DNA from: an uncultured Chloroflexia bacterium
Lineage (GTDB): Bacteria; Chloroflexota; Anaerolineae; Anaerolineales; Anaerolineaceae
Assembly (NCBI GenBank): GCA_963704755.1
Contig: OY969938.1
Coordinates: forward strand, 30,001 to 62,000
Length of the DNA: 32,000 nucleotides
Reading direction: 5' to 3'
The notes beneath the pieces are model-generated. The model ran no database searches. It was given only the letters and a program-made list of their open reading frames with translations, and had not been told where the DNA came from. Shown piece by piece: positions 1,961 to 31,555 of this stretch. Within the stretch, counting starts at the first letter, position 1. Every line of letters begins with the position of its first letter. Made by a program: the position numbers and the translations under genes.

Positions 1961-2309
1961 TCAAGGTTTTTCGACGCCGATACTTTCCAGGTAGAATTCT
2001 TCTCCCTGGGTGATATTGACGCGCATAGATCCGCAATTCGGGCAGGGTTCGAGTTGGTCTGCTAGCTCGAATTCAGAAGTTGCAGTTTAAACAAACCATT
2101 TTGGCCGGCAGGCGGTTGAAATGCAGCTCGGCGCCCTGGCAAATGGTGTTTTCGGCCAGAATATCCCAATAGAATTGAACGGAATCATCGACAAAGCTGG
2201 ACAGTCGCCCGATGACAAGATAGATATCGGTGACGCGAGTAGCATCGGCCTGTTTTGCATGTTTCAAGGCCAGATCTAATAAAGATTCGGTTATCGCCAG
2301 TTCATGCAT
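1961..2309 (-). pseudogene. hypA: Hydrogenase nickel metallochaperone HypA, reading frame broken by an apparent 1-nt insertion at 2073-2075
   Basis: ORF 2073..2309 gives MHELAITESLLDLAL...MVCLNCNF then TGA. The next frame (2074 down to 1961) continues EFELADQLEPCPNCGSMRVNITQGEEFYLESIGVEKP*. Joined, they restore the HypA zinc site CxxC-x12/13-CxxC and the conserved C-terminus. Confidence 0.85.
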
Positions 2310-2375
2310 TGTCTAATTATAATCTTTGGCTACCAATAATGGACAAACCGAATCCGATTTCTTTTTTGCCTGCGA

Positions 2376-2867
2376 TCACTCAGCAATCACCTGTTCGGAG
2401 GAGTGGACGATTTGTTCCATTAGCTGTAATTTGAACATCAACAAGTTGCTGGCAACCACATTGGCCAGCCGCTTCATGATGACATAACCAACATGGCGAT
2501 CGCGATCGCAAAGTTCGTAAAGCTCGTCGCCATTGAGCACTAACAGGCGGGTATCCTTGACCGCGACTGCCGATGAGGTCCGCTGGCGGACAACCGGGGT
2601 CATGCGCGACCAGCCGATGATATCCAGGGGTTCGGCATAGTAAATGTGAACCTGGCCGCGAGAGGGTATGCTGGAAAAAAGATCTACCTCACCTGAAAGG
2701 ACTATATACACATTATCGATGCGATCCCCCTCGCAGAAGATCGTATCGTCTGGTTGCTTGGTTACGATTGCGGCAATATTCGCCAGGCTCTCGAGTTGCT
2801 TTTGATTAAACTCGAGGAACCAGGGAATACCTTTGAGTATTTCGATCAATTCAGTCTTATTATCCAT
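2376..2867 (-). CDS. Cyclic-nucleotide-binding (cNMP/Crp-type effector) domain protein with no DNA-binding domain
   Basis: The 163-aa ORF follows the cNMP beta-barrel pattern (FCEGDRIDNVYIVLSGEVDLF ... AEPLDIIGW ... RTSSAVAVKDTRLLVL). It ends after the C-helix with no HTH. Confidence 0.75.
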   Translation of the reverse strand: MDNKTELIEILKGIPWFLEFNQKQLESLANIAAIVTKQPDDTIFCEGDRIDNVYIVLSGEVDLFSSIPSRGQVHIYYAEPLDIIGWSRMTPVVRQRTSSAVAVKDTRLLVLNGDELYELCDRDRHVGYVIMKRLANVVASNLLMFKLQLMEQIVHSSEQVIAE

Positions 2868-3027
2868 GGTATACCACTACTTTCGATGCTATTGTTTTAA
2901 CATTCTTGGCGTCTCTATTGAAGTGTCCTCCGTCACAAACCGGCGGGGTCGATTGTCATCAAAATAATGAAATGTAAATAAGAGTTGTCATAATTCATTT
3001 CACAGGATGTTTCCCCCGACTTTGAAA

Positions 3028-4145
3028 GCCGGGCTACCGGTGGGCAGCGCCCGTTGGTGACCAAGGTCGCGGCAACAAAAACGCGAAGACCCACCTGCGT
3101 GGGTCTCTCTTTTGGCAGCGCCTGATTTCCTAGCCGGAGTTTTGCCCGGCGAGCTGATGAAGTGCCCTCCCCAGGCCCTCTCCCAGCGCCGGCCAAGCAA
3201 AACCCTGTCCACTGGATCATTTTTCACCGAAATTGAGCCCCACGCAGGTGGGGCTTCGTGGTTTTGTAGGTGCAGCTTTAGCTGCTGCGGGCCTGGGTAG
3301 AAACGCCGGCCTGGCTACCCCCCGGCTGGGCTACCGGCGGGCAGCGACCGTTGGCGACCAAGGCCGCGGCAACAAAAACACGAAGACCCACCTGCGTGGG
3401 TCTCTCTTTAGGCAGCGCCTGATTCCCTAGCCGGAATTTTGCCCGGCGAGCTGATGAAGTCCCTCCCCCCGGCCCGCTCCCAGCGCCGGCCAAGCAAAAT
3501 CCTGTCCACTGGATCGGTTTACACCGAAATGGAGTCCCACGCAGGTAGGGCTTCGTGGTTTTGTAGGTGCAGCTTTAGCTCCTACGGGCCTGGGTAGAAA
3601 CGCCGGCTGGGCTACCGGCGGGCAGCGCCCGTTGGCGACCAAGGTCGCGGCAACAAAAACACGAAGACCCACCTGCGTGGGTCTCTCTTTTGGCAGCGCC
3701 TGATTCCCTAGCCGGAATTTTGCCCGGCGAGCTGATGAAGTCCCTCCCCCCGGCCCGCTCCCAGCGCCGGCCAAGCAAAATCCTGTCCACTGGATCGGTT
3801 TACACCGAAATGGAGTCCCACGCAGGTAGGGCTTCGTGGTTTTGTAGGTGCAGCTTTAGCTCCTACGGGCCTGGGTAGAAACGCCGGCTGGGCTACCGGC
3901 GGGCAGCGCCCGTTGGCGACCAAGGTCGCGGCAACAAAAACACGAAGACCCACCTGCGTGGGTCTCTCTTTTGGCAGCGCCTGATTCCCTAGCCGGAATT
4001 TTCCCCGGCGAGCTGATGAAGTGCCCTCCCCCCGGCCCTCTCTCACCCTGGCCAAGCAAAACCCTGTCCACTGGATCGGTTTTCACCGAAATGGAGCCCC
4101 ACGAAGGTGGGGCTTCGTGGTTTTGTAGGTGCAGCTTTAGCTGCC
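3028..4145. repeat. Noncoding tandem array, about 3.9 copies of a 281-297 bp GC-rich, hairpin-dense unit
   Basis: The anchor GAAGACCCACCTGCGTGGGTCTC recurs at 3085, 3382, 3663 and 3944 (periods 297, 281, 281). Segment 3411-3721 is base-for-base identical to 3692-4002. ORFs called here occur on both strands, repeat with the unit, and are Gly/Arg/Pro-rich with no RBS. Confidence 0.92.
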
Positions 4146-4177
4146 GTTTGAAGGACGCAACTTGGATTTTGGACGGC

Positions 4178-4729
4178 TCATCTGGCCTGGATCCAGTCCA
4201 GAATACGGCCAGCTGCCTGCGGGACCAGGTCACGGGTTGCCGTCGAAAGCTCCTGCGAGAAGCCAAACTCGAACCCACGCACCGAAACGAGCACTGCCTG
4301 GGGGAGCTTGCCGTACAGGGATTGCACCAGCGACAGGCAGGTCTGGGGTGTCATATGGTGGGTAAAAGGCGAGTTGACGAATTCGGGACTGAGCCTTTCC
4401 AGGTTGACCAGTTGGTCCACCCGACCGGTGTGCGCGTCGATGAAGCACACCCGTTCGTAAGCCGAAAGCAGTTCAGCCTCTTCGGGCATGAGCTGGAGTG
4501 CGAATGCTGCGTCGATCCCAGCGGAGATCGTAACCAGGGGTTCATCCGGCTGTTCAGGCAGGCTGAACCCATAGGATTGGGCAACTGCCTGTAAGACGTG
4601 CCAGGCAACACCGTCGTCCTGGCGGTCAACGTTGCCGTAGCCCAACAACAAGACGCTTTTTGTTAAACCGGCATCTTCCGCAGGAAGATGCCGGTTTAAA
4701 CTTTCGTTGCCAGAATGATCAGTCATCAT
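4178..4729 (-). CDS. hoxW: [NiFe] hydrogenase maturation endopeptidase (HoxW/HyaD/HycI family)
   Basis: N-terminal LLLGYGNVDRQDDGVAWHV matches the GxGNxxxxDDGxG metal-binding motif. Downstream it has FIDAH and a THH(M) region. It overlaps the hoxH stop by 11 nt. Confidence 0.85.
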   Translation of the reverse strand: MMTDHSGNESLNRHLPAEDAGLTKSVLLLGYGNVDRQDDGVAWHVLQAVAQSYGFSLPEQPDEPLVTISAGIDAAFALQLMPEEAELLSAYERVCFIDAHTGRVDQLVNLERLSPEFVNSPFTHHMTPQTCLSLVQSLYGKLPQAVLVSVRGFEFGFSQELSTATRDLVPQAAGRILDWIQAR

Positions 4730-6152
4730 CCCGTGTAATCGTTTTGATCAGGTTTCCATCCGGGTCGAGCATCTCGACGACGATGGGCATTTGACCGACT
4801 GCATGGGTGGAGCAGGACAGGCAGGGGTCGTAAGCGCGTACGGCAGCTTCCACCCGGTTAAGCATACCTTCCTGGATATCTGGGCCGTGGACGTAGGTCT
4901 TGGCGACCGAATCGACCGCTTTGCTCATCGCCCAGTTGTTATTCCCGGTGGCCACAATCAAGTTCACCTTGGTGATCTGGCCATTTTCGTCAGCCCAATA
5001 GTGGTGCCAGAGGGTGCCGCGCGGGGCTTCAATCACACCCACGCCTTCGCCACGGATGTCCTGCCTGGTATTGAGCGTATCCTGGCTGAGGATATCGGGG
5101 TCGTCGAGCAGCACACGCACGTTTTCAGCAGCGTAGAGGGTTTCGATCAGCCTGGCATAGTGGTAGTACAGCGTGTTTTCAACCGGTTTGCCGCTGTTGA
5201 GGCCTTTGAAAATTTTCATTTCTTCTTCGGCCAGTGGGGTCGAAATGCTATCGCTGGCGTTCAAGCGGCCCAAGGGGCCTACGCGATACACCCCACCTGG
5301 GTAACCCAGTTTCTTGTAATAGGGGAATTTGAGGTACGACCAGCTCTCGACGTGCTCGGCGATGTAATCCAGGTAGTCGCGGCCATCGAAGCATTCCAAT
5401 TCCTGGCCGGCCTGGTCGATCAGGCGTACATTGCCATCGTACAGCTCCAGGCTGTTGCCTTCTTTGACCATGCCCAGGTAACCGGAGGGGAAGACGGCAA
5501 ACTTGTTGATGTCTTCCATATTCTTGGCAGCCCAGTCTTTCATGATGCCCAGGCCAGCTTGAATGGTGGCGATGGCTTCATCCAGACCGGAGAGAATATC
5601 ATCCCGTTCGGCCGGCTTCAAGGATTTGTTGACCCCACCCGGTACGGCAAAGGTCGGATGGATGCGGCGCCCGCCCAGGGTGTGGATAATTTCTTGTCCA
5701 AATTTGCGCAGGTTGACTGCTTTTAGCGTCAGTCCAGCGTTGGCCTGTACCAGACCGACCACGTTGCGGATGGCGGGGTCGGCGTCGAAGCCCAATAACA
5801 AATCAGGCCCGGCTAGCTCGAAGAAGTGCATGCCGTGGCTCTGGATGATCTGGCCCATGTGCATCAATTCACGCAGAAGTTGAGCCGGGCGGGGAGCGGG
5901 CATGCCCAACAATTCATCGCCAGCCTTGGCAGAAGCCAGGTGATGCGAAACCGGGCAAATTCCGCAAATACGCGGGGTGATATTGGGCATTTCGAAGACC
6001 ATACGGCCTTCGCAGAATTTCTCGAAGCCGCGGAACTCGTTGACGTGCAAGTAGGCGTGGTCCACGCTGCCGTCTTCAGCCATGTGGATGGTGACTTTGG
6101 CGTGACCTTCGATCCGGGTGACCGGTTCAATCGTAATTTTTTGGGTTGCCAT
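4719..6152 (-). CDS. hoxH: [NiFe] hydrogenase large (catalytic) subunit, group 3 / Hox-type
   Basis: N-terminal Ni-Fe ligand motif [13 protein letters not shown] and C-terminal DPCLSCSTH, followed by a 27-aa tail of the kind removed by the endopeptidase. The ORF track begins at TTG 6176, but ATG 6152 follows GGAGGG by 5 nt and does not overlap hoxY, so I prefer it. Confidence 0.93.
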
Positions 6153-6166
6153 TTTTCCCTCCACCA

Positions 6167-6709
6167 TTAATGCCAATCAAGTTTATCGTTCTTGATTTCC
6201 GGGATACGGCCCTGGGCCAATTCGGCCAGCACATAAAAAATTGTGTCGGCATCCGGCGGGCAGCCAGGGACGAAAACGTCCACCGGCACGACTTCGCTTA
6301 CGGCCCGTACTTTGGTCGGAACACACAGTTCGGGATCATCCGGAATTTTGCCTTCGGAGTCAGTGCTTTCGGTTTCAATATAAGCCCGCCGCAATGACTC
6401 TTCGAGGGTAAAGAAATTACGCATAGCCGGAACGCCACCGAAGACCGCACAGTCACCCAGGGCGACCAGGACCTTACAGTGTTTGCGCATGTTTTCGGCG
6501 ACTTCTTCGTTGTAGGTATTGTTGATGCCGCCTTCCAGAATGCCAACATCGACACCTGATTCATCCGGCCTTTTCAAATCTGTGATCGGGGTGGAGCGCA
6601 GGTCGGCCAGTTCGAGTACTTTGATAATTCGTTCGTCCATGTCCAATAAGGACATGTGACATCCCGAGCAGCCTGCCAACCAGTCCGAGGATACTTTTGG
6701 TTTAGTCAT
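6167..6709 (-). CDS. hoxY: [NiFe] hydrogenase small subunit (group 3, NuoB/20-kDa-like)
   Basis: MTKPKVSSDWLAGCSGCHMSLLDMDE... with further Cys ligands (GDCAVFGG, PGCPP). An AAGGAG RBS lies upstream of ATG 6709. Confidence 0.9.
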   Translation of the reverse strand: MTKPKVSSDWLAGCSGCHMSLLDMDERIIKVLELADLRSTPITDLKRPDESGVDVGILEGGINNTYNEEVAENMRKHCKVLVALGDCAVFGGVPAMRNFFTLEESLRRAYIETESTDSEGKIPDDPELCVPTKVRAVSEVVPVDVFVPGCPPDADTIFYVLAELAQGRIPEIKNDKLDWH

Positions 6710-6739
6710 TGATATTTCTCCTTATACCAGTACGAAAGC

Positions 6740-8692
6740 TCAGGCAGCGATCTCAACTGGAGATGGCTGTTTGCTTAATTCTGCTTGCCAATCCTCATCC
6801 AGGGCAATGCCTAACCGGCCGGCAATCTTTTCCAGCACAGTGCTGCTGGCTAGCACGGCTTCTGGAGCGGTCAGAGACGCCTGGGCGGCCTGGATACGGC
6901 CATCCATGCTTACATAATGGCCGGCCTGTTCCAGCCAGGATTGAACCGGCAGGACCACATCGGCCTGGGCGGTCAGTTTGGATACATGGCTGGCCTGGAC
7001 GACCAGGAAGGGTGCTTTTTCCAGGGTCTTGACCAGGCTCTCGCTGGGGGCTTCGTCGCCCAGGGCGACAAATGCGGCTTTATGGCCGTTGAGCTTGAAG
7101 GCTTTGTCGAGGCCGTACTGGGCGGCAGCGACACTGTTCGCCCCACCTTTGGGGTCGATCAGCGTGGCGCCGATGGTTTCGGCAAATTTGACCAGGGCCT
7201 GCAATGTGGCCAGGTCGTTGATCTTGGCCGGGTCGTAGATAACAACCGGGTTGCTGGTGTTGGCCAGCCGGAAGGCAGCCTCGAGCAGCAGGTCGGAGGA
7301 CACGCCGGATTTGGCAGCCGCCTCAGCAACAGCCGGGTCGGGCTCACCTTCAAAGGCGGCTTTATTCTGGCCTAATTTGGCCGCAGCAGCGGTCAGGCCG
7401 TTGACCAGGGTGGCTTCCTGCCCGGCTTTGGGGGTCAGGCCACAGTTCGTGAATTGGGTCAGATCGTTTTCCTGCGGGTCGACCACCACCAGGGTGATAT
7501 CGTTGGCCAACTTGCGGCGGATGAAGAAGCCGGTTACCTGGTGTTCGTTCATCAGGTCGGCGCCGAAGACGAGCACGCCGCCGGCGTTCTTGAGCGCATC
7601 CAGCTTGCCTTCGAAGGCTTTCCCGGTCTGGGCAGCCATTTCAGAAGTAATGTGGGTGTTGGAACCTTCTTCCAGGGAGGTAACCATATCCCCGGCCAGG
7701 CCGTCGGCAAAAATTTTCTTGAATGCGTAGAGCGATTCGGCCGGCAGGCGAGCGGAAGCCGTTGCGGCGACGCTGTGATCTTTCAGATGTTCGGCTACTG
7801 CGTCCAGGGCTTCATCCCAGGTAGTGGGGATCAAGGCGCCATCTTTGCGGACCATGGGGGAAAGGATGCGTTCGCGATCCTCACTCAGGGGGATGAAGCG
7901 ACCCTCTTTGCACAACAGGCCCTCGTTGACGGGAGCATCCCAATCGCCTTCGATGCGCACAACCTGCCCGTCACGGGTAAGCACGTCGATACCACAGCCG
8001 ACCGAACAGCCGACACACACGGTAAGGTTGTGCTCCACCTGGGTTTCCCTGCCACGGTAAGCTGAACGGCGGTCGATCAACGCGCCGGTGGGGCAGACCT
8101 GCACGCAGGTACCGCAGGATACACAGGAACTTTCACCCAGGGGCACGTTCAAGTCGGCGATGACGAAGGTCTTGGCGCCGCGCTCTTCAACGCCCAAGGT
8201 GTTGGCGCCGACCAGCTCGGAGCAGGCGCGGATGCAGCGCCGGCAGAGGATGCAGCGGTTGTGCTCCAGGATAAAGAACGGGTGGGAAGCATCCACCGGG
8301 TAGCGCTGCCAGTTAGGCTGTAAGTCCCAGTGGGTCATATCTTCATCGTAGGCCGCGTTTTGTAATTCGCAGTCGCCGCCGCTGACCTGGCAGTAAGGGC
8401 AGAAGTGATTGCGCTCGCTGAAGATCAGGGTCAAGACGAATTTGCGGGCCTTGTTAACTTTTTCGGTGGTGGTGTGAACCACCATGTTGTTGCTGACCGG
8501 GATCGTGCAGGCAGATTGCAGAGTCCGAAAACCGTCGATTTCGACCATACATAACCGGCAGCCCCCATACGGCGTCAGGTGCGGGTGGTCGCACAAGGTG
8601 GGGATATGAATACCGGCCTGTTGGGCTGCTCGTAAAACGGTGGTTCCTTCAGGTACCTCTAGATTTTTATTATCGATTGTGATGGTGACCAT
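6740..8692 (-). CDS. Fe-S electron-transfer subunit: HoxU/NuoG-like N-terminus fused to a molybdopterin-oxidoreductase-like domain
   Basis: From MVTITIDNKNLEVPEGTTVL: a 2Fe-2S motif (CDHPHLTPYGGCRLCMVEI), then CPYC/CELQ, then two ferredoxin 4Fe-4S motifs (CILCRRCIRAC; CVSCGTCVQVCP). Next comes a molybdopterin-oxidoreductase-type 4Fe-4S motif (CVGCSVGCGIDV...LCKEGRF) and about 370 further aa. The AAGGAGAG RBS precedes ATG 8692. The ORF-track start at 8839 would overlap the preceding gene. No H-cluster motifs (TSCCP, MPCxxK) are visible. Confidence 0.85.
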   Translation of the reverse strand: MVTITIDNKNLEVPEGTTVLRAAQQAGIHIPTLCDHPHLTPYGGCRLCMVEIDGFRTLQSACTIPVSNNMVVHTTTEKVNKARKFVLTLIFSERNHFCPYCQVSGGDCELQNAAYDEDMTHWDLQPNWQRYPVDASHPFFILEHNRCILCRRCIRACSELVGANTLGVEERGAKTFVIADLNVPLGESSCVSCGTCVQVCPTGALIDRRSAYRGRETQVEHNLTVCVGCSVGCGIDVLTRDGQVVRIEGDWDAPVNEGLLCKEGRFIPLSEDRERILSPMVRKDGALIPTTWDEALDAVAEHLKDHSVAATASARLPAESLYAFKKIFADGLAGDMVTSLEEGSNTHITSEMAAQTGKAFEGKLDALKNAGGVLVFGADLMNEHQVTGFFIRRKLANDITLVVVDPQENDLTQFTNCGLTPKAGQEATLVNGLTAAAAKLGQNKAAFEGEPDPAVAEAAAKSGVSSDLLLEAAFRLANTSNPVVIYDPAKINDLATLQALVKFAETIGATLIDPKGGANSVAAAQYGLDKAFKLNGHKAAFVALGDEAPSESLVKTLEKAPFLVVQASHVSKLTAQADVVLPVQSWLEQAGHYVSMDGRIQAAQASLTAPEAVLASSTVLEKIAGRLGIALDEDWQAELSKQPSPVEIAA

Positions 8693-8793
8693 TCCAATCA
8701 CTCTCCTTAGCGTATGGGGTTCTTGCACCAGCAAGTCATTTTTAATTTTTTTCTCAACCAGTGACCATCTTCGCCGGATGGCGCCAGGCTCGT

Positions 8794-10432
8794 TTATGCG
8801 TGGACCGGCTGCGCAATTTTGCACACACCGGTTGGGCAAACATGCAGGCGGATATGGGCTTCAACCTCTGCCCGGAAGTAATTCAAGATGTCTCGCAACG
8901 GCGTACCGGCCGACTGGCCCAGGCCGCAATTGGAGAGCTGATACAGGTTATCCGAGAGCTCGGCCAACTGGTCCAAATCGTGCAATGTAGCGCTGCCTGA
9001 GGCAATATTGGTTAATATCTCGTATGCGCGCTGAGTACCGATCCGGCAGGGGTTGCATTTCCCGCAAGATTCGGTGCGGAAGAAGTTCAGCAATACCCGG
9101 GCGAGATCGACCACACAATTATTCTCGTCGCAGATCAACATGGCGCCCGAACCGAGCGAGACGCCGGCTTTGCTGAAGGAGTCGAAGTCCATCGGGGTAT
9201 CCTGGAGTGAGGCGGGAATTATCGAACCGCTCGAACCGCCGGTCTGGGCCATCTTGAAAGAAACCCCGTCTTTCATCCCTTTGGCGTAAATCGCGATGAC
9301 TTCGCGTAAGGTGATGCCCATGGGGACCTCGATCAGGCCGGTTACGTTGACGTTGCCCAATACGGTGTAAACTTTGGTCCCCGGGCTGCTGGGCGTACCA
9401 AAACTACGGAACCAGTTGGCGCCGTTGTTGATAATGGCGGGAATATTGGCCAGGGTCTCGACGTTATTGATCAGGGTGGGTTTGTTCCACAGGCCGTTAG
9501 TGGTGGGGAAAGGTGGACGAGAGCGGGGTTGGCCGCGCTTGCCTTCGATCGACTCGATCAGGGCAGTTTCCTCGCCGCAGATGTAAGCGCCGGCGCCACT
9601 GTGGACGTGCAGTTCGAAGTTGAACCCGCTGTTGAAAATATTTTCGCCCAGGAAACCCATTTCCTTGGCTTGCAGGATGGCCCGGTTCAACCTTTCCTGG
9701 GCTAAAACATATTCGCCGCGGATGTAAATATAACCTTCATCAGCACCGACCGTATAGCCGGCCAGGGTAATCGCTTCGATAATGGCGTGCGGATCGCCTT
9801 CCAGGATCAGGCGGTCTTTGAACGTGCCGGGCTCGGATTTCATCGGCGTTACACAGGACGTATTTCTTGTCCGATTTTTCACGGGCGACGAAACTCCACT
9901 TCAAGCCGGTCGGGAAGCCGGCTCCACCGCGGCCACGCAGCCCGGAGGATTTGATCTCTTCCTGCACCTGTGCCGGTGTCATTTCGGTCAAGGCTTTGCC
10001 GAGGGCCTGGTAACCTTCGTGCAAAATGTAATCTTCGATTTCGTTCGGGTCGATGATGCCGGCCCGGCGCAGGACGATCCGCTGCTCGGCCGGGAGGGTG
10101 CCTTTACGCGCGGACAGCCAGGCGATGTTACCGGATAACTCGCGGATAGACGCCTTCAGGTCTTCGGCGACACGACCTTTGTAGAGGTGTTCTTCGACCA
10201 GGTAAGGGACTTTATCTGGCGTGACCGGCCCGTAGATGACGGCTTCCGGGTACACAATGACGATGGGCAGTGCATCATGGCGGCCAACATCGCCGATCAT
10301 GGACAGTGAAATTTCATCTTCCAGGCCGAAAGCTTTGATCTCTTCCTGGAGTTTATCGAAGACCTCTTGGGCACCCCGCTGCATCGAGATCGGGTCACTG
10401 GATACCAATACCATGGATCGTACGGTTTTCAT
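8794..10432 (-). pseudogene. hoxF: NAD(P)H-binding flavoprotein HoxF/NuoF-like, frame broken by an apparent extra A in an AAA run (plus-strand TTT 9838-9840)
   Basis: ORF 9740..10432 reads ...[18 protein letters not shown]...KYVLCNADE, then goes out of frame. ORF 8794..9882 picks up at [17 protein letters not shown]...ESCGKCNPCRIG...SNCGLGQS. Deleting one base gives the canonical [14 protein letters not shown] junction and a protein of about 545 aa. Confidence 0.85.
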
Positions 10433-10444
10433 TAGTCTCCCTCC

Positions 10445-10924
10445 CTACTCATAATTTCCCAGGATTTCTGAGACTTTCTTGGGATCGACATTGCCATAAA
10501 TATCATCGTCGATGATGATTACCGGGCCAACGCCGCACACACCCAGGCAACTGGTGGTGATCAAAGTCCATTTTCCATCCTGGCTGGTTTCACCGGATTG
10601 CAAATCGAGCTGTTCGCTGAGGCTTTCCCACACCTCGCGGCCGCCAACGACATGACATGGGGCACTTTCACAAAACTGAATCACGTGCCGGCCACGGGGT
10701 TTGGTGGACAGCATGTGGTAAAAACTGGCAACGGAGAACAGGCTGCTCTTGGGTTCACGCAGCCGTCGGCTGATTTCAGACAAGGCTTGTTCAGGAAGGT
10801 AGCCAAGCGAGCGGTTGACATCGTTCAAGATGGGGATCAACTCATCGCGGGTGGCACCATGACGATCAACCGCCGCACCGACAACTTCGTTGATCTTTTC
10901 TTCTTTGGTTGCTGTTACTGCCAT
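10445..10924 (-). CDS. hoxE: NuoE/HoxE-like 2Fe-2S thioredoxin-fold subunit (copy 2)
   Basis: The 159-aa ORF has the NuoE cluster pattern: FCESAPCHVVG ... TTSCLGVCGVGPVIIID. Confidence 0.85.
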   Translation of the reverse strand: MAVTATKEEKINEVVGAAVDRHGATRDELIPILNDVNRSLGYLPEQALSEISRRLREPKSSLFSVASFYHMLSTKPRGRHVIQFCESAPCHVVGGREVWESLSEQLDLQSGETSQDGKWTLITTSCLGVCGVGPVIIIDDDIYGNVDPKKVSEILGNYE

Positions 10925-17370: not shown

Positions 17371-18642
17371 ATGGCAAAGATCATTCAACCAGTCAAGGGA
17401 ACACGGGATTTTTATCCCGAGGAAATGGCAGCACGCTCCTGGTTATACCAGCAACTACGGCAGGTATCAGAATCCTATGGATATCAGGAATACGAAGCTC
17501 CCTTTCTTGAAAAGATCGACCTTTACGCGGCCAAGTCCGGTGAAGAGTTGGTCAAAGAACAGGCGTTTGTCTTTCCGGACCGGGGTGGGGATTTAATCAC
17601 CTTACGCCCGGAACTAACGCCCAGCCTGGCACGCATGGTTGCCCAACGCCAGCAGCAGTTCTTTTACCCCTTGCGGTGGTGGTCTTTTGGCCCATTCTGG
17701 CGCTACGAAAAGCCACAGCGCGGGCGGACGCGTGAGTTCTTTCAATGGAATATCGACCTGATCGGCCCCAGCTCGTCCGAATCGGATGCGGAGTTGATTT
17801 CGGTGGCAGCCAGCCTCTTTAAACGGGTGGGCCTGTCTTCCAATCAGGTACAGATTTCGGTAAATGACCGGCGCTTGATGGATGCGCAGTTGACCAAACT
17901 GGGGTTAGCCGATAGCAGCCAGAAGAAAGCGGTTTTTCGTTTGATCGACCGCCGGGACAAAATGCCTTTCGCAGCCTGGAAGGATTATGCGCTGGAACTT
18001 GGATTGGATGAAACCCAGTTCGAAAAGTTCCTGGCGGTGCTGGATGACCAATCCTTATGGGAGCAAAGCCCGGATATGGTTCAGTTGTTCGCGGCCCTGG
18101 AGGCTTCAGGGGCGAAAGAATACGTGCGCTTTGACCCGCAAGTGATTCGCGGATTGGAATATTACACCGGCACCGTTTTCGAAGCCCACGATGTACAGGG
18201 TGAGGGACGGGCCATCCTGGGTGGCGGCCATTACGATAACCTGGTCGGCGATGTGGGGGGCAACCCACTGGCGGGAGTCGGGTTTGCTATGGGCGATGTG
18301 ATGGTCACCCTGATCCTGAAGGATTATGGTTTACTGCCGGAATACAGCGGAACACCTGCCCAGGTACTGGTGACTTTGTTCGATGAGAACCTCAAAAACG
18401 ATGCGATCGCGCTGGCCAGCCGGCTGCGAGAGTCCGGGGTCAGCACGGCCTGTTTTACCGAGGTGCAGAAGCTGCCGCGCCAGTTCAAATACGCCGACCG
18501 GCTGGGTGTGCGCTTTGTGGTCATCGTCGGCCCGGAGGAACAGGCGGCCAGAACTGCGACCTTGAAAGATTTGCCTTTGGGCAGCCAGGAAACAGTACCT
18601 CAGGATCAACTGGCCGGGGTTATACTGGCCAAGCTGAGTTGA
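17371..18642 (+). CDS. hisS: Histidine--tRNA ligase
   Basis: KGTRDFYPEE, RPELTPS, FRYE-like WRYEKPQRGRTREF, GGGHYDNL, and a C-terminal anticodon-binding domain (VLVTLFDE...VRFVVIVGPEE). Confidence 0.92.
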   Translation: MAKIIQPVKGTRDFYPEEMAARSWLYQQLRQVSESYGYQEYEAPFLEKIDLYAAKSGEELVKEQAFVFPDRGGDLITLRPELTPSLARMVAQRQQQFFYPLRWWSFGPFWRYEKPQRGRTREFFQWNIDLIGPSSSESDAELISVAASLFKRVGLSSNQVQISVNDRRLMDAQLTKLGLADSSQKKAVFRLIDRRDKMPFAAWKDYALELGLDETQFEKFLAVLDDQSLWEQSPDMVQLFAALEASGAKEYVRFDPQVIRGLEYYTGTVFEAHDVQGEGRAILGGGHYDNLVGDVGGNPLAGVGFAMGDVMVTLILKDYGLLPEYSGTPAQVLVTLFDENLKNDAIALASRLRESGVSTACFTEVQKLPRQFKYADRLGVRFVVIVGPEEQAARTATLKDLPLGSQETVPQDQLAGVILAKLS

Positions 18643-21719: not shown

Positions 21720-21927
21720 CTCGAGCGGGTGAAGGGACCCGATCATTGATCCCCCCACGGGGAACCACGATATTATTACCTTGAGCGGGTGATGGGACTC
21801 GATCATTGATCCCCCCACGGGGAACAACGAGATTAAAAAATAACCCCTCTAACGAGGGGGTAACTTGAGCGGGTGATGGGACTCGATCATTGATCCCCCC
21901 ACGGGGAACAACGATATTATTACCTTG
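21720..21927 (-). repeat. Three tandem 60/84/60-bp units, each ending in a copy of the last 19 nt of tRNA-Gly plus its 4-nt trailer
   Basis: Plus-strand CTTGAGCGGGTGATGGGACTCGA occurs at 21780, 21864 and 21924 (the last is the tRNA itself). A degenerate copy, CTCGAGCGGGTGAAGGGACCCGA, is at 21720. Every unit shares TCATTGATCCCCCCACGGGGAAC(A/C)ACGA. Confidence 0.85.
21835..21860 (-). terminator. Rho-independent terminator (minus strand) embedded in the repeat array
   Basis: On the minus strand: CCCCTC-GTTA-GAGGGG followed by TTATTTTTT. It lies after the first repeat unit downstream of tRNA-Gly. Confidence 0.55.
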
Positions 21928-21999
21928 AGCGGGTGATGGGACTCGAACCCACGATATTTTGCTTGGGAAGCAAACGTTCTACCACTGAACTACACCCGC
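21928..21999 (-). tRNA. tRNA-Gly (anticodon CCC), CCA not encoded
   Basis: Minus strand reads GCGGGTG-TA-GTTC-AGTGGT-AGAAC-G-TTTGC-TTCCCAA-GCAAA-ATATC-GTGGG-TTCGAGT-CCCAT-CACCCGC-T. All four stems pair. Confidence 0.9.
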
Positions 22000-31516: not shown

Positions 31517-31520
31517 TAAC

Positions 31521-31555
31521 AAAAAATCTCCCGCTTGCGGGAGATTTTTTGTTTT
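31521..31555 (+). terminator. Rho-independent terminator after tRNA-Gln
   Basis: AAAAAA-ATCTCCCG-CTTG-CGGGAGAT-TTTTTTGTTTT. Confidence 0.7.

Follow-up and report, generated by a model that had tools for sequence, protein, structure and literature searches.

A tandem array of palindromic doublets, probably a REP- or MITE-like repeat, between the hox and hyp genes of an uncultured Anaerolineaceae bacterium

The hydrogenase locus of an uncultured Anaerolineaceae bacterium (contig OY969938.1), analysed here as a 32,000-nt stretch that we call the window, carries a 1.1-kb palindrome-rich array between its hox structural genes and its hyp maturation genes. This array is probably a selfish or neutral repeat: four tandem copies of a non-autonomous extragenic palindromic doublet, similar to repetitive extragenic palindromic (REP) elements and their doublets (REPINs) or to miniature inverted-repeat transposable elements (MITEs). 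The match to this class rests on the inverted palindromic arms, a poorly conserved spacer, extragenic positions, variable presence and the near-identical arms found at unrelated loci in one genome. We file the array as REP/REPIN- or MITE-like and not as a confirmed REPIN; the family seems undescribed, though it is an ordinary kind of bacterial repeat.

Architecture of the array

The four head-to-tail copies with periods of 297, 281 and 281 bp that an earlier note described from the sequence alone are real. Tandem Repeats Finder (TRF) gave a period of 281 bp with 2.9 copies and 97% matches over 3322-4142, and a repeat search placed four in-register copies at 3025-3305, 3322-3602, 3603-3883 and 3884-4164 (spacing 297/281/281). 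Segment 3411-3721 is indeed identical at every base to 3692-4002, a 311-nt exact duplication, and the substitutions seen in the outer copies amount to a difference of 8-10% from the other copies. Units 2 and 3 differ at 3 positions, against 20-26 of 258 for all other pairs, and this near-identity supports the proposed recent duplication or gene conversion. The position given for the array also holds, with a hoxW-like gene on one side and, on the other, a gene for a cyclic nucleotide monophosphate (cNMP)-binding-domain protein that precedes hypA/B/F; all genes neighbouring the array lie on the minus strand.

In each unit, two arms of about 65 nt face each other across a spacer of about 111 nt and form an inverted doublet, and successive doublets are joined by a palindrome-rich linker of about 48 nt. 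An arm runs from a 5-bp small hairpin, whose loop is usually TAAA, through a conserved, A-rich linker ending in CGAAG to an 8-bp GC-rich large hairpin with a CTKC loop. On the + strand the A arm consists of GCGAC-CAAG-GTCGC, the linker GGCAACAAAAACACGA and the large hairpin AGACCCAC-CTGC-GTGGGTCT, followed by CTCTTTT; in unit 1 its small hairpin is GYGAC-CAAG-GTCGC and its linker GGCAACAAAAACRCGA. The B arm is inverted and of the same design, with GCAGC-TAAA-GCTGC, the linker ACCTACAAAACCACGA and the large hairpin AGCCCCAC-CTKC-GTGGGGCT, which in unit 1 reads AGCCCCAC-CTGC-GTGGGGCT. Treated as terminal inverted repeats, the window arms span 41-53 nt and are 79-85% complementary, and the whole unit forms one long imperfect hairpin (for unit 3, z = -4.25 on the + strand and -3.30 on the - strand).

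The 23-nt hairpin core occurs eight times in the window, always within the array, where 0 occurrences are expected by chance, and a covariance model of the arm, R1, likewise finds eight arms in the window, all in the array. The GC-rich hairpins described previously, two per unit, are all present, four as GAAGACCCAC-CTGC-GTGGGTCTC on the + strand and four as related inverted copies, with the correction that the last inverted loop is GAAG and not GCAG. Two further motifs had been assigned to every unit and proved less regular: GTAGGTGC-AGCTTTA-GCTCCTAC stands in copies 2 and 3, copies 1 and 4 having the simpler GCAGC-TTTA-GCTGC, and the palindrome GCGACC-AA-GGTCGC is perfect in copies 3 and 4 and imperfect in the others. 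The rest of that motif list was correct, apart from small copy-specific differences. The features of the array are as follows, with R1 scores for the arms.

3027..4146, no strand assigned: whole tandem array, four units of a non-coding palindromic doublet
3025..3321, + strand: unit 1, 297 bp, with an extra 16-nt local duplication CCGGCCTGGCTACCCC at 3306-3321
3322..3602, + strand: unit 2, 281 bp, 3 positions unlike unit 3
3603..3883, + strand: unit 3, 281 bp, folds into one long imperfect hairpin
3884..4146, + strand: unit 4, stops at the native element end ...AGCTTTAGCTGCCG, without the inter-unit linker
3049..3113, + strand: A arm of unit 1, 68.9 bits
3346..3410, + strand: A arm of unit 2, 69.0 bits
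3627..3691, + strand: A arm of unit 3, 72.3 bits
3908..3972, + strand: A arm of unit 4, 72.3 bits
3229..3293, - strand: B arm of unit 1, 74.6 bits
3526..3590, - strand: B arm of unit 2, 63.8 bits, large hairpin degraded by one mismatch and one wobble pair
3807..3871, - strand: B arm of unit 3, 63.8 bits, large hairpin degraded as in unit 2
4088..4152, - strand: B arm of unit 4, 76.4 bits, the first arm reached by transcription from hoxW
3021..3026, + strand: TTTGAA, abutting the left array end
4147..4152, + strand: TTTGAA, abutting the right array end

Selection on structure looks relaxed inside the array, given the mismatch and wobble pair in units 2 and 3 and the single-sided changes present in the small hairpins of units 1 and 2; to judge by the decayed hairpins of units 2 and 3, structure is not under strong selection there.

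The array is non-coding, in keeping with the earlier view. Its period is not a multiple of three, its open reading frames (ORFs) gave no Pfam match at E <= 1, and its 115-aa ORF had no homologue among 5.8 billion proteins; a protein-coding reading was rejected on these three grounds. A CRISPR array was rejected because the entire 281-bp unit repeats without unique spacers, an integron attC array because the whole unit repeats and there are no cassettes, and a riboswitch or leader of the cNMP gene because the conserved promoter region lies outside the array. An Rfam scan of the window returned nothing at the gathering threshold and noise only (<=20.6 bits) at E <= 10, and in gathering mode eight loci yielded only tRNAs and noise; the earlier note had likewise not recognised the array as any named RNA family.

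Stem covariation and dispersed relatives

Compensatory changes, for which the earlier note had proposed a test on the copies, were found across 22 aligned arms of the family. In this alignment (A2), scored against the two-hairpin structure, 95.4% of cells form a standard pair, compared with 33-41% in slid-partner controls, and both partners vary in 8 of the 13 pairs. None of 500 shuffles reached the observed covariation score, and none the observed percentage paired. Three of the five pairs of the small hairpin covary, though this hairpin lies outside every search pattern. Stems covary, and loops and linkers stay conserved. The 22 arms gave no clear strand bias of G-U wobbles against C-A mismatches, so that hairpins acting as RNA and hairpins acting as single-stranded DNA are not distinguishable.

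Comparison with orthologous loci points to an insertion confined to this lineage. Four Anaerolineae-type loci share the gene order hoxH, protease gene (181-186 aa), cNMP gene and, where the contig reaches, hypA-E; the L015 contig is 3.4 kb long and ends just past the cNMP gene.

L011: HoxH 84% identical to that of the window, intergenic region 109 nt
L012: HoxH 84% identical, intergenic region 124 nt
L016: HoxH 83% identical, intergenic region 102 nt
L015: HoxH 92% identical, intergenic region 261 nt

Neither regular-expression nor R1 searches found an arm in any of these four loci. Since the relatives keep the gene order with only 102-261 nt and no arm, the array reads as a lineage-specific insertion of about 1.15 kb. 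From about a dozen bases past the protease stop codon, the L015 intergenic region aligns with window positions 2993-2885 at 84% identity, and the ancestral promoter region of the cNMP/hyp genes was kept intact beside the insertion.

Elements of the same design were found elsewhere. A degenerate pattern for the large hairpin (19 fixed bases; about 4 chance matches expected in 596 Gb) matched ten stretches in GTDB species-representative genomes, six of which lie on separate contigs of the Chloroflexota metagenome-assembled genome (MAG) OH_CBlB_125. This MAG holds at least six doublets on 6 contigs, each 184-214 nt in total, with near-perfect 55-nt terminal inverted repeats around a variable 85-105-nt middle that is unalignable between most copies. 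An independent query with a 23-mer from the B arm, at its small-hairpin end, brought up two metagenome contigs (L013 and L014) whose common sequence is a 135-nt compact doublet and whose flanks are unrelated. That doublet matches the window in flanks and loops (CGAAG 5', CTGC and GAAG loops, TTYGYGGTTTTGTAGGTGCAGCTTTAGCTGCCG), and its stems are entirely different from those of the window and fully compensated (CCTGC/GCAGG, CCCGCC/GGCGGG). More arms, in which the stem differs again, occur in another Chloroflexota MAG (L005).

The genes flanking the doublets are unrelated housekeeping genes whose products have clear Pfam domains (trehalose phosphatase, VWA, glyoxalase, UbiA, NMT1, GH4, GNAT, WD40 and endonuclease/exonuclease/phosphatase). 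Convergent 3' ends enclose the doublets in L003, L007, L010, L013 and L014, the L001 doublet lies between two same-strand genes, and all arms are intergenic or overlap merely the last codons of Pfam-matched genes. In the other Chloroflexota compared, elements of the array's type sit singly between genes, mostly between convergent 3' ends, and these dispersed extragenic inverted doublets support the former likening of the array to a mosaic of alternating palindromes of the REP type or of bacterial interspersed mosaic elements (BIMEs). From the genomes and contigs examined, the family looks low-copy: instead of the hundreds of dispersed copies that the earlier note had considered, we count at least six doublets in one MAG and none elsewhere in the window. 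Blastn of two units against phage and plasmid sequences gave no match, nor did two pattern scans of viral contigs.

Several further observations concern the dispersed elements. In 5 of about 11 cases the TAA of the TAAA small-hairpin loop is the stop codon of an incoming ORF (L007 2548-2550 and 2716-2718; L013 620-622; L014 203-205 and 311-313), which points to insertion at or across stop codons. In L005, a non-coding stretch of about 900 nt beside a tRNA gene (5480-6370) holds several family arms and hairpins with differing stems. A contig of a Candidatus Eisenbacteria MAG (L006) matches R1 at 1220-1278 with 30.7 bits (E about 3e-7), and the family may reach beyond Chloroflexota or the contig may be mis-binned. 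Singletons in Halothiobacillus (L002) and Phytohabitans (L008) were set aside as probably chance, with R1 scores of <=15 bits, no small hairpin and about 4 chance matches expected.

Resemblance to known repeats and rival explanations

REP dimers have spacers of 20-100 bp and form clusters in which dimers are reiterated in tandem with flanking DNA segments, and GTAG REPs have been reported in Chloroflexi (Di Nocera et al. 2013, PMC3733652); REPINs are REP doublets mobilised by REP-associated tyrosine transposases (RAYTs) (Bertels & Rainey 2011, PMC3116915). By analogy, the array looks like the tandem dimer clusters of PMC3733652 at a larger scale. It shares with REPs and REPINs short extragenic palindromes in inverted pairs, a 20-110-nt spacer less conserved than the arms, and an inverted pair that can fold into a single long hairpin, as seen for every unit of the window, for L013/L014 and for the doublets of the MAG. 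Placement after genes, especially between convergent genes and sometimes with the gift of a stop codon, is also shared, as are tandem clusters of dimer plus flanking DNA and GTAG 2 nt 5' of the B-arm small hairpin. Unlike the 20-40-nt REP, however, the arm here comprises two hairpins and about 65 nt; GTAG is not constant, a 6-bp target-site duplication is possible at the array and no RAYT lies in the 32-kb window. The family also appears low-copy here: one MAG has at least six doublets, about 100 kb of the lineage outside the array have none, and the 281-bp unit is far larger than typical REP cluster periods.

Escherichia coli BIME-2 elements consist of alternating Y and Z REPs with specific S, L, l and r linkers. 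The array resembles them in its palindromes of alternating orientation, its two alternating linkers and its tandem amplification in an intergenic region of an operon context, and like theirs its number of copies probably varies. The two are unrelated in sequence, the phylum is different, and a BIME unit measures about 80-100 bp against 281 bp; the partners integration host factor (IHF), gyrase and DNA polymerase I (Pol I) are those of BIMEs. The array sequences bear no resemblance to what we take to be the E. coli REP consensus, and BIME is used as an analogy only. MITEs with structured ends, such as the Neisseria Correia elements and the enterobacterial repetitive intergenic consensus sequences or intergenic repeat units (ERIC/IRU), offer another likeness, being non-coding and intergenic, about 130-230 bp long, bounded by long terminal inverted repeats, transcribed together with their neighbours and capable of working as RNA hairpins or terminators. 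The present family differs from them in its unconserved internal region, its inconsistent target-site duplication and the lack of a known parent insertion sequence.

If the array is a selfish or neutral repeat, one doublet would have inserted in a gap of about 100 nt downstream of hoxW and upstream of the cNMP-binding/hyp promoter, a harmless site. Unequal recombination or replication slippage could then have expanded the doublet, along with about 48 nt of linker, to three copies or more, early enough for the outer copies to diverge by 8-10%, and a recent duplication or gene conversion would have made units 2 and 3 nearly identical. The direct repeat TTTGAA, which abuts both array ends and is absent from the inter-unit junctions, may be the 6-bp target-site duplication of the original insertion. 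The L007 doublet is similarly flanked by ATCTTG, and a 6-mer shared within 18-nt flanks arose by chance in 3.8% of trials. In total, a flanking 6-mer occurs in two of eight elements, with differing sequence and offset; no flanking repeat was found at L001, L003, L009, L013 or L014, which are three of the five MAG doublets and both metagenome doublets.

A number of results weigh against the selfish or neutral reading. TTTGAA and ATCTTG suggest a mechanism that duplicates its target site, unlike mobilisation of the RAYT/IS200 type, and the evidence here conflicts. The tag is inconsistent: B arms in the window, L013 and L014 have GTAG at a distance of 2 nt from the small hairpin, A arms have GTTG and MAG arms CTAG. 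No transposase is linked to the array within the 32-kb window, which contains neither a RAYT nor any other. The large hairpin was partly selected by the search criteria themselves, and homology between the window and the MAG elements is limited to the arm architecture and about 30 nt, their spacers being unrelated. Finally, R1 found no arm in the 31 kb of the window that lie outside the array, nor in 67 kb of relatives, and the family is therefore not a classical high-copy REP.

Some of the same evidence bears on a classical MITE moved by a DDE transposase, with terminal inverted repeats and target-site duplication and later tandem amplification, a reading that differs from our preferred explanation solely in the mobilising enzyme. 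Both the 55-nt near-perfect terminal inverted repeats of the MAG doublets and the hexamers around the array and the L007 doublet would suit such an element, but we consider it very unlikely: most of the MAG doublets and both metagenome doublets have no flanking direct repeat, the internal sequence is unconserved among copies, unlike that of typical MITEs, the window encodes no transposase, and no parent insertion sequence is known, no search for one having been made. Frameshifts in hoxF and hypA hint at an error-prone long-read assembly, in which mis-assembled or over-collapsed reads might have produced a false array. Artefactual arrays are normally made of identical copies, however, and this one lies inside a 4.87-Mb contig, shows structured divergence of 8-10% between copies and carries a 16-nt indel in unit 1, which leaves an artefact barely credible.

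Function supplies the other rivals. The array falls precisely between the final hox gene and the next operon's conserved promoter region and leaves that promoter intact, as would be expected of a domesticated terminator or insulator array whose hairpins were selected to stop or buffer transcription from hox into the cNMP/hyp genes, or to stabilise the 3' end of the hox mRNA. Positions 2300-4800 contain 12 terminator-like sites against 3.2 expected, 10 of them within the array, the A-arm hairpins have T-runs on both strands, and the short intergenic regions of the relatives have no obvious terminator. Yet four related lineages manage without the array. The first hairpin reached from hoxW on the minus strand is followed by CAUUUCGG, and the better T-run CGUGUUUUUG begins 4 nt past the stem; T-runs on this strand either come 4 nt after the stem or are merely UUU. 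Since T-runs after the large hairpin are inconsistent among family members, termination is not a conserved property of the family. A single hairpin would suffice, moreover, and four units with decaying hairpins look unselected, so we regard selection as a terminator or insulator as unlikely. The earlier note also suggested an array of small structured RNA genes, here four, with a terminator in every unit. This reading finds little support, and we give it only a slim chance. Strong hairpin covariation with conserved loops and linkers, two terminator-like hairpins per unit on the + strand, and a unit fold significantly stabler than shuffled sequence would agree with small RNA (sRNA) genes. In Nostoc, NsiR1 upstream of hetF is such a tandem sRNA gene array, and the likeness extends to tandem direct repeats with a terminator-like hairpin in each. 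Here, though, the promoter scan found no sigma-70-like promoter within any unit (3028-4145), Rfam gave no match, the array is missing from the orthologous loci of four relatives, and the most recently homogenised copies carry a degraded hairpin. The spacer, the sole part able to carry a specific function, is unconserved in the family, there is no asymmetry of G-U against C-A, and the symmetric inverted design and location over convergent gene ends suit DNA repeats better. A broader proposal treats the two-hairpin arm not as plain junk DNA but as a Chloroflexota-wide functional mobile 'gene-end cassette', whose inverted pair would supply the genes on both sides with a stop codon and with a hairpin that protects or terminates their transcripts, and which would be recognised by some protein or act as RNA. 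We think this improbable; were it true, the fourfold array would be a reinforced insulator uncoupling hox from hyp in this lineage.

A selfish or neutral repeat could still affect its neighbours. Past hoxW the minus (transcribed) strand carries eight stable hairpins, four of them with a nearby T-run, and from their positions the array probably reduces hox-to-hyp read-through or protects the hox mRNA 3' end as a by-product. The insulation between two hydrogenase operons that the earlier note proposed would be only a possible side effect of this kind. For E. coli REP/BIME elements, read-through reduction and mRNA 3'-end protection are established.

The surrounding locus and the meaning of the array

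The array separates the end of a hoxEFUYH(W) operon from the start of a hypA-B-F... block, and the best named HoxH relatives are Bellilinea/Anaerolineaceae MAGs.

10445-10924, - strand: hoxE
8794-10432, - strand: hoxF, split by a frameshift
6740-8839, - strand: hoxU-like gene, long, with a NuoG-like extension
6167-6709, - strand: hoxY
4719-6176, - strand: hoxH
4178-4729, - strand: hoxW-like hydrogenase maturation protease gene (TIGR00072, 53.8 bits against a cut-off of 47.45), last gene of the hoxEFUYH(W) operon
2868..2996, - strand: ancestral intergenic region beside the array, kept intact, 84% identical to the L015 intergenic region
2376-2867, - strand: gene of a cNMP-binding-domain protein (PF00027), first gene of the hypA-B-F... 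block
between 1960 and 2376, - strand: hypA, frameshifted
1279-1959, - strand: hypB
no coordinates given, - strand: hypF, after hypB

Within 2868-2996 a promoter-like site lies at 2991-2964. Upstream of the cNMP-binding-domain gene, a 16-nt motif, TGACGGAGGACACTTC, at 2935-2920 on the minus strand is kept with small differences in L011, L012, L015 and L016 (consensus about TGACGGRGKACAC), the rest of the intergenic region having diverged; it probably serves the cNMP/hyp operon as an operator or promoter element. A GCGATCGC (highly iterated palindrome, HIP1) doublet at 2496-2509 raised the idea of a cyanobacterial origin, which was rejected: the count of HIP1 sites is 3 against 1 expected, and the relatives of HoxH are Anaerolineae/Bellilinea MAGs.

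The hoxF break near 9839/9840 is a +1 frameshift that yields two overlapping ORFs where relatives have a single 544-546-aa protein; GAAATCC there carries one A beyond that needed for the conserved ...CNADE-x-EPGTFKDR, and the frameshift reflects a sequencing error in a homopolymer or else a real pseudogene. By comparison with the HypA of L011, hypA (1967-2309, minus strand) encodes residues 1-77 in one frame and 80-114 in another, with the break near 2071-2079. These are the only frameshifts seen in the window and both fall in hydrogenase genes, a coincidence that is statistically not compelling (roughly p = 0.15). The HoxU-like subunit (6740-8839) has a long NuoG/molybdopterin-oxidoreductase-like extension, its ORF measuring 699 aa against 650-656 aa in relatives. 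The hox cluster of some relatives includes a formate/nitrite transporter gene, and that of L011 (region 3658-7384) a 932-aa formate-dehydrogenase-like gene; the window has neither.

The rest of the window is of housekeeping type (hisS, a two-component system, mreBC, a penicillin-binding transpeptidase, a rodA/ftsW-family gene, a class I Glu/Gln tRNA synthetase and tRNAs). A 423-aa 'putative transposase' (17371-18642) proved to be histidyl-tRNA synthetase, its label deriving from a 55-aa JGI fragment that represents its 90% cluster. The intergenic region between a response-regulator gene and tRNA-Gly (21927-21999) holds a tandem repeat at 21723-21835 (period 60 bp, 1.9 copies, 92% matches). Directly 3' of tRNA-Gln, a perfect 16-bp stem, AACAAAAAATCTCCCG-CTTG-CGGGAGATTTTTTGTT (31518-31553), is a textbook bidirectional intrinsic terminator, unlike the array hairpins.

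To our knowledge, REP/REPIN-type elements are well studied in Proteobacteria and barely described in Anaerolineae. The array reveals no new kind of system. Annotation should mark these 1.1 kb as a repeat region and place no genes or RNA genes there; copy number is likely to vary at this site, and short-read assemblies are likely to break. The insertion accounts for a hox-hyp gap ten times longer than in relatives, and R1, which defines the two-hairpin arm family, can be used to survey Chloroflexota for its copy number, an associated transposase and effects on transcript 3' ends.

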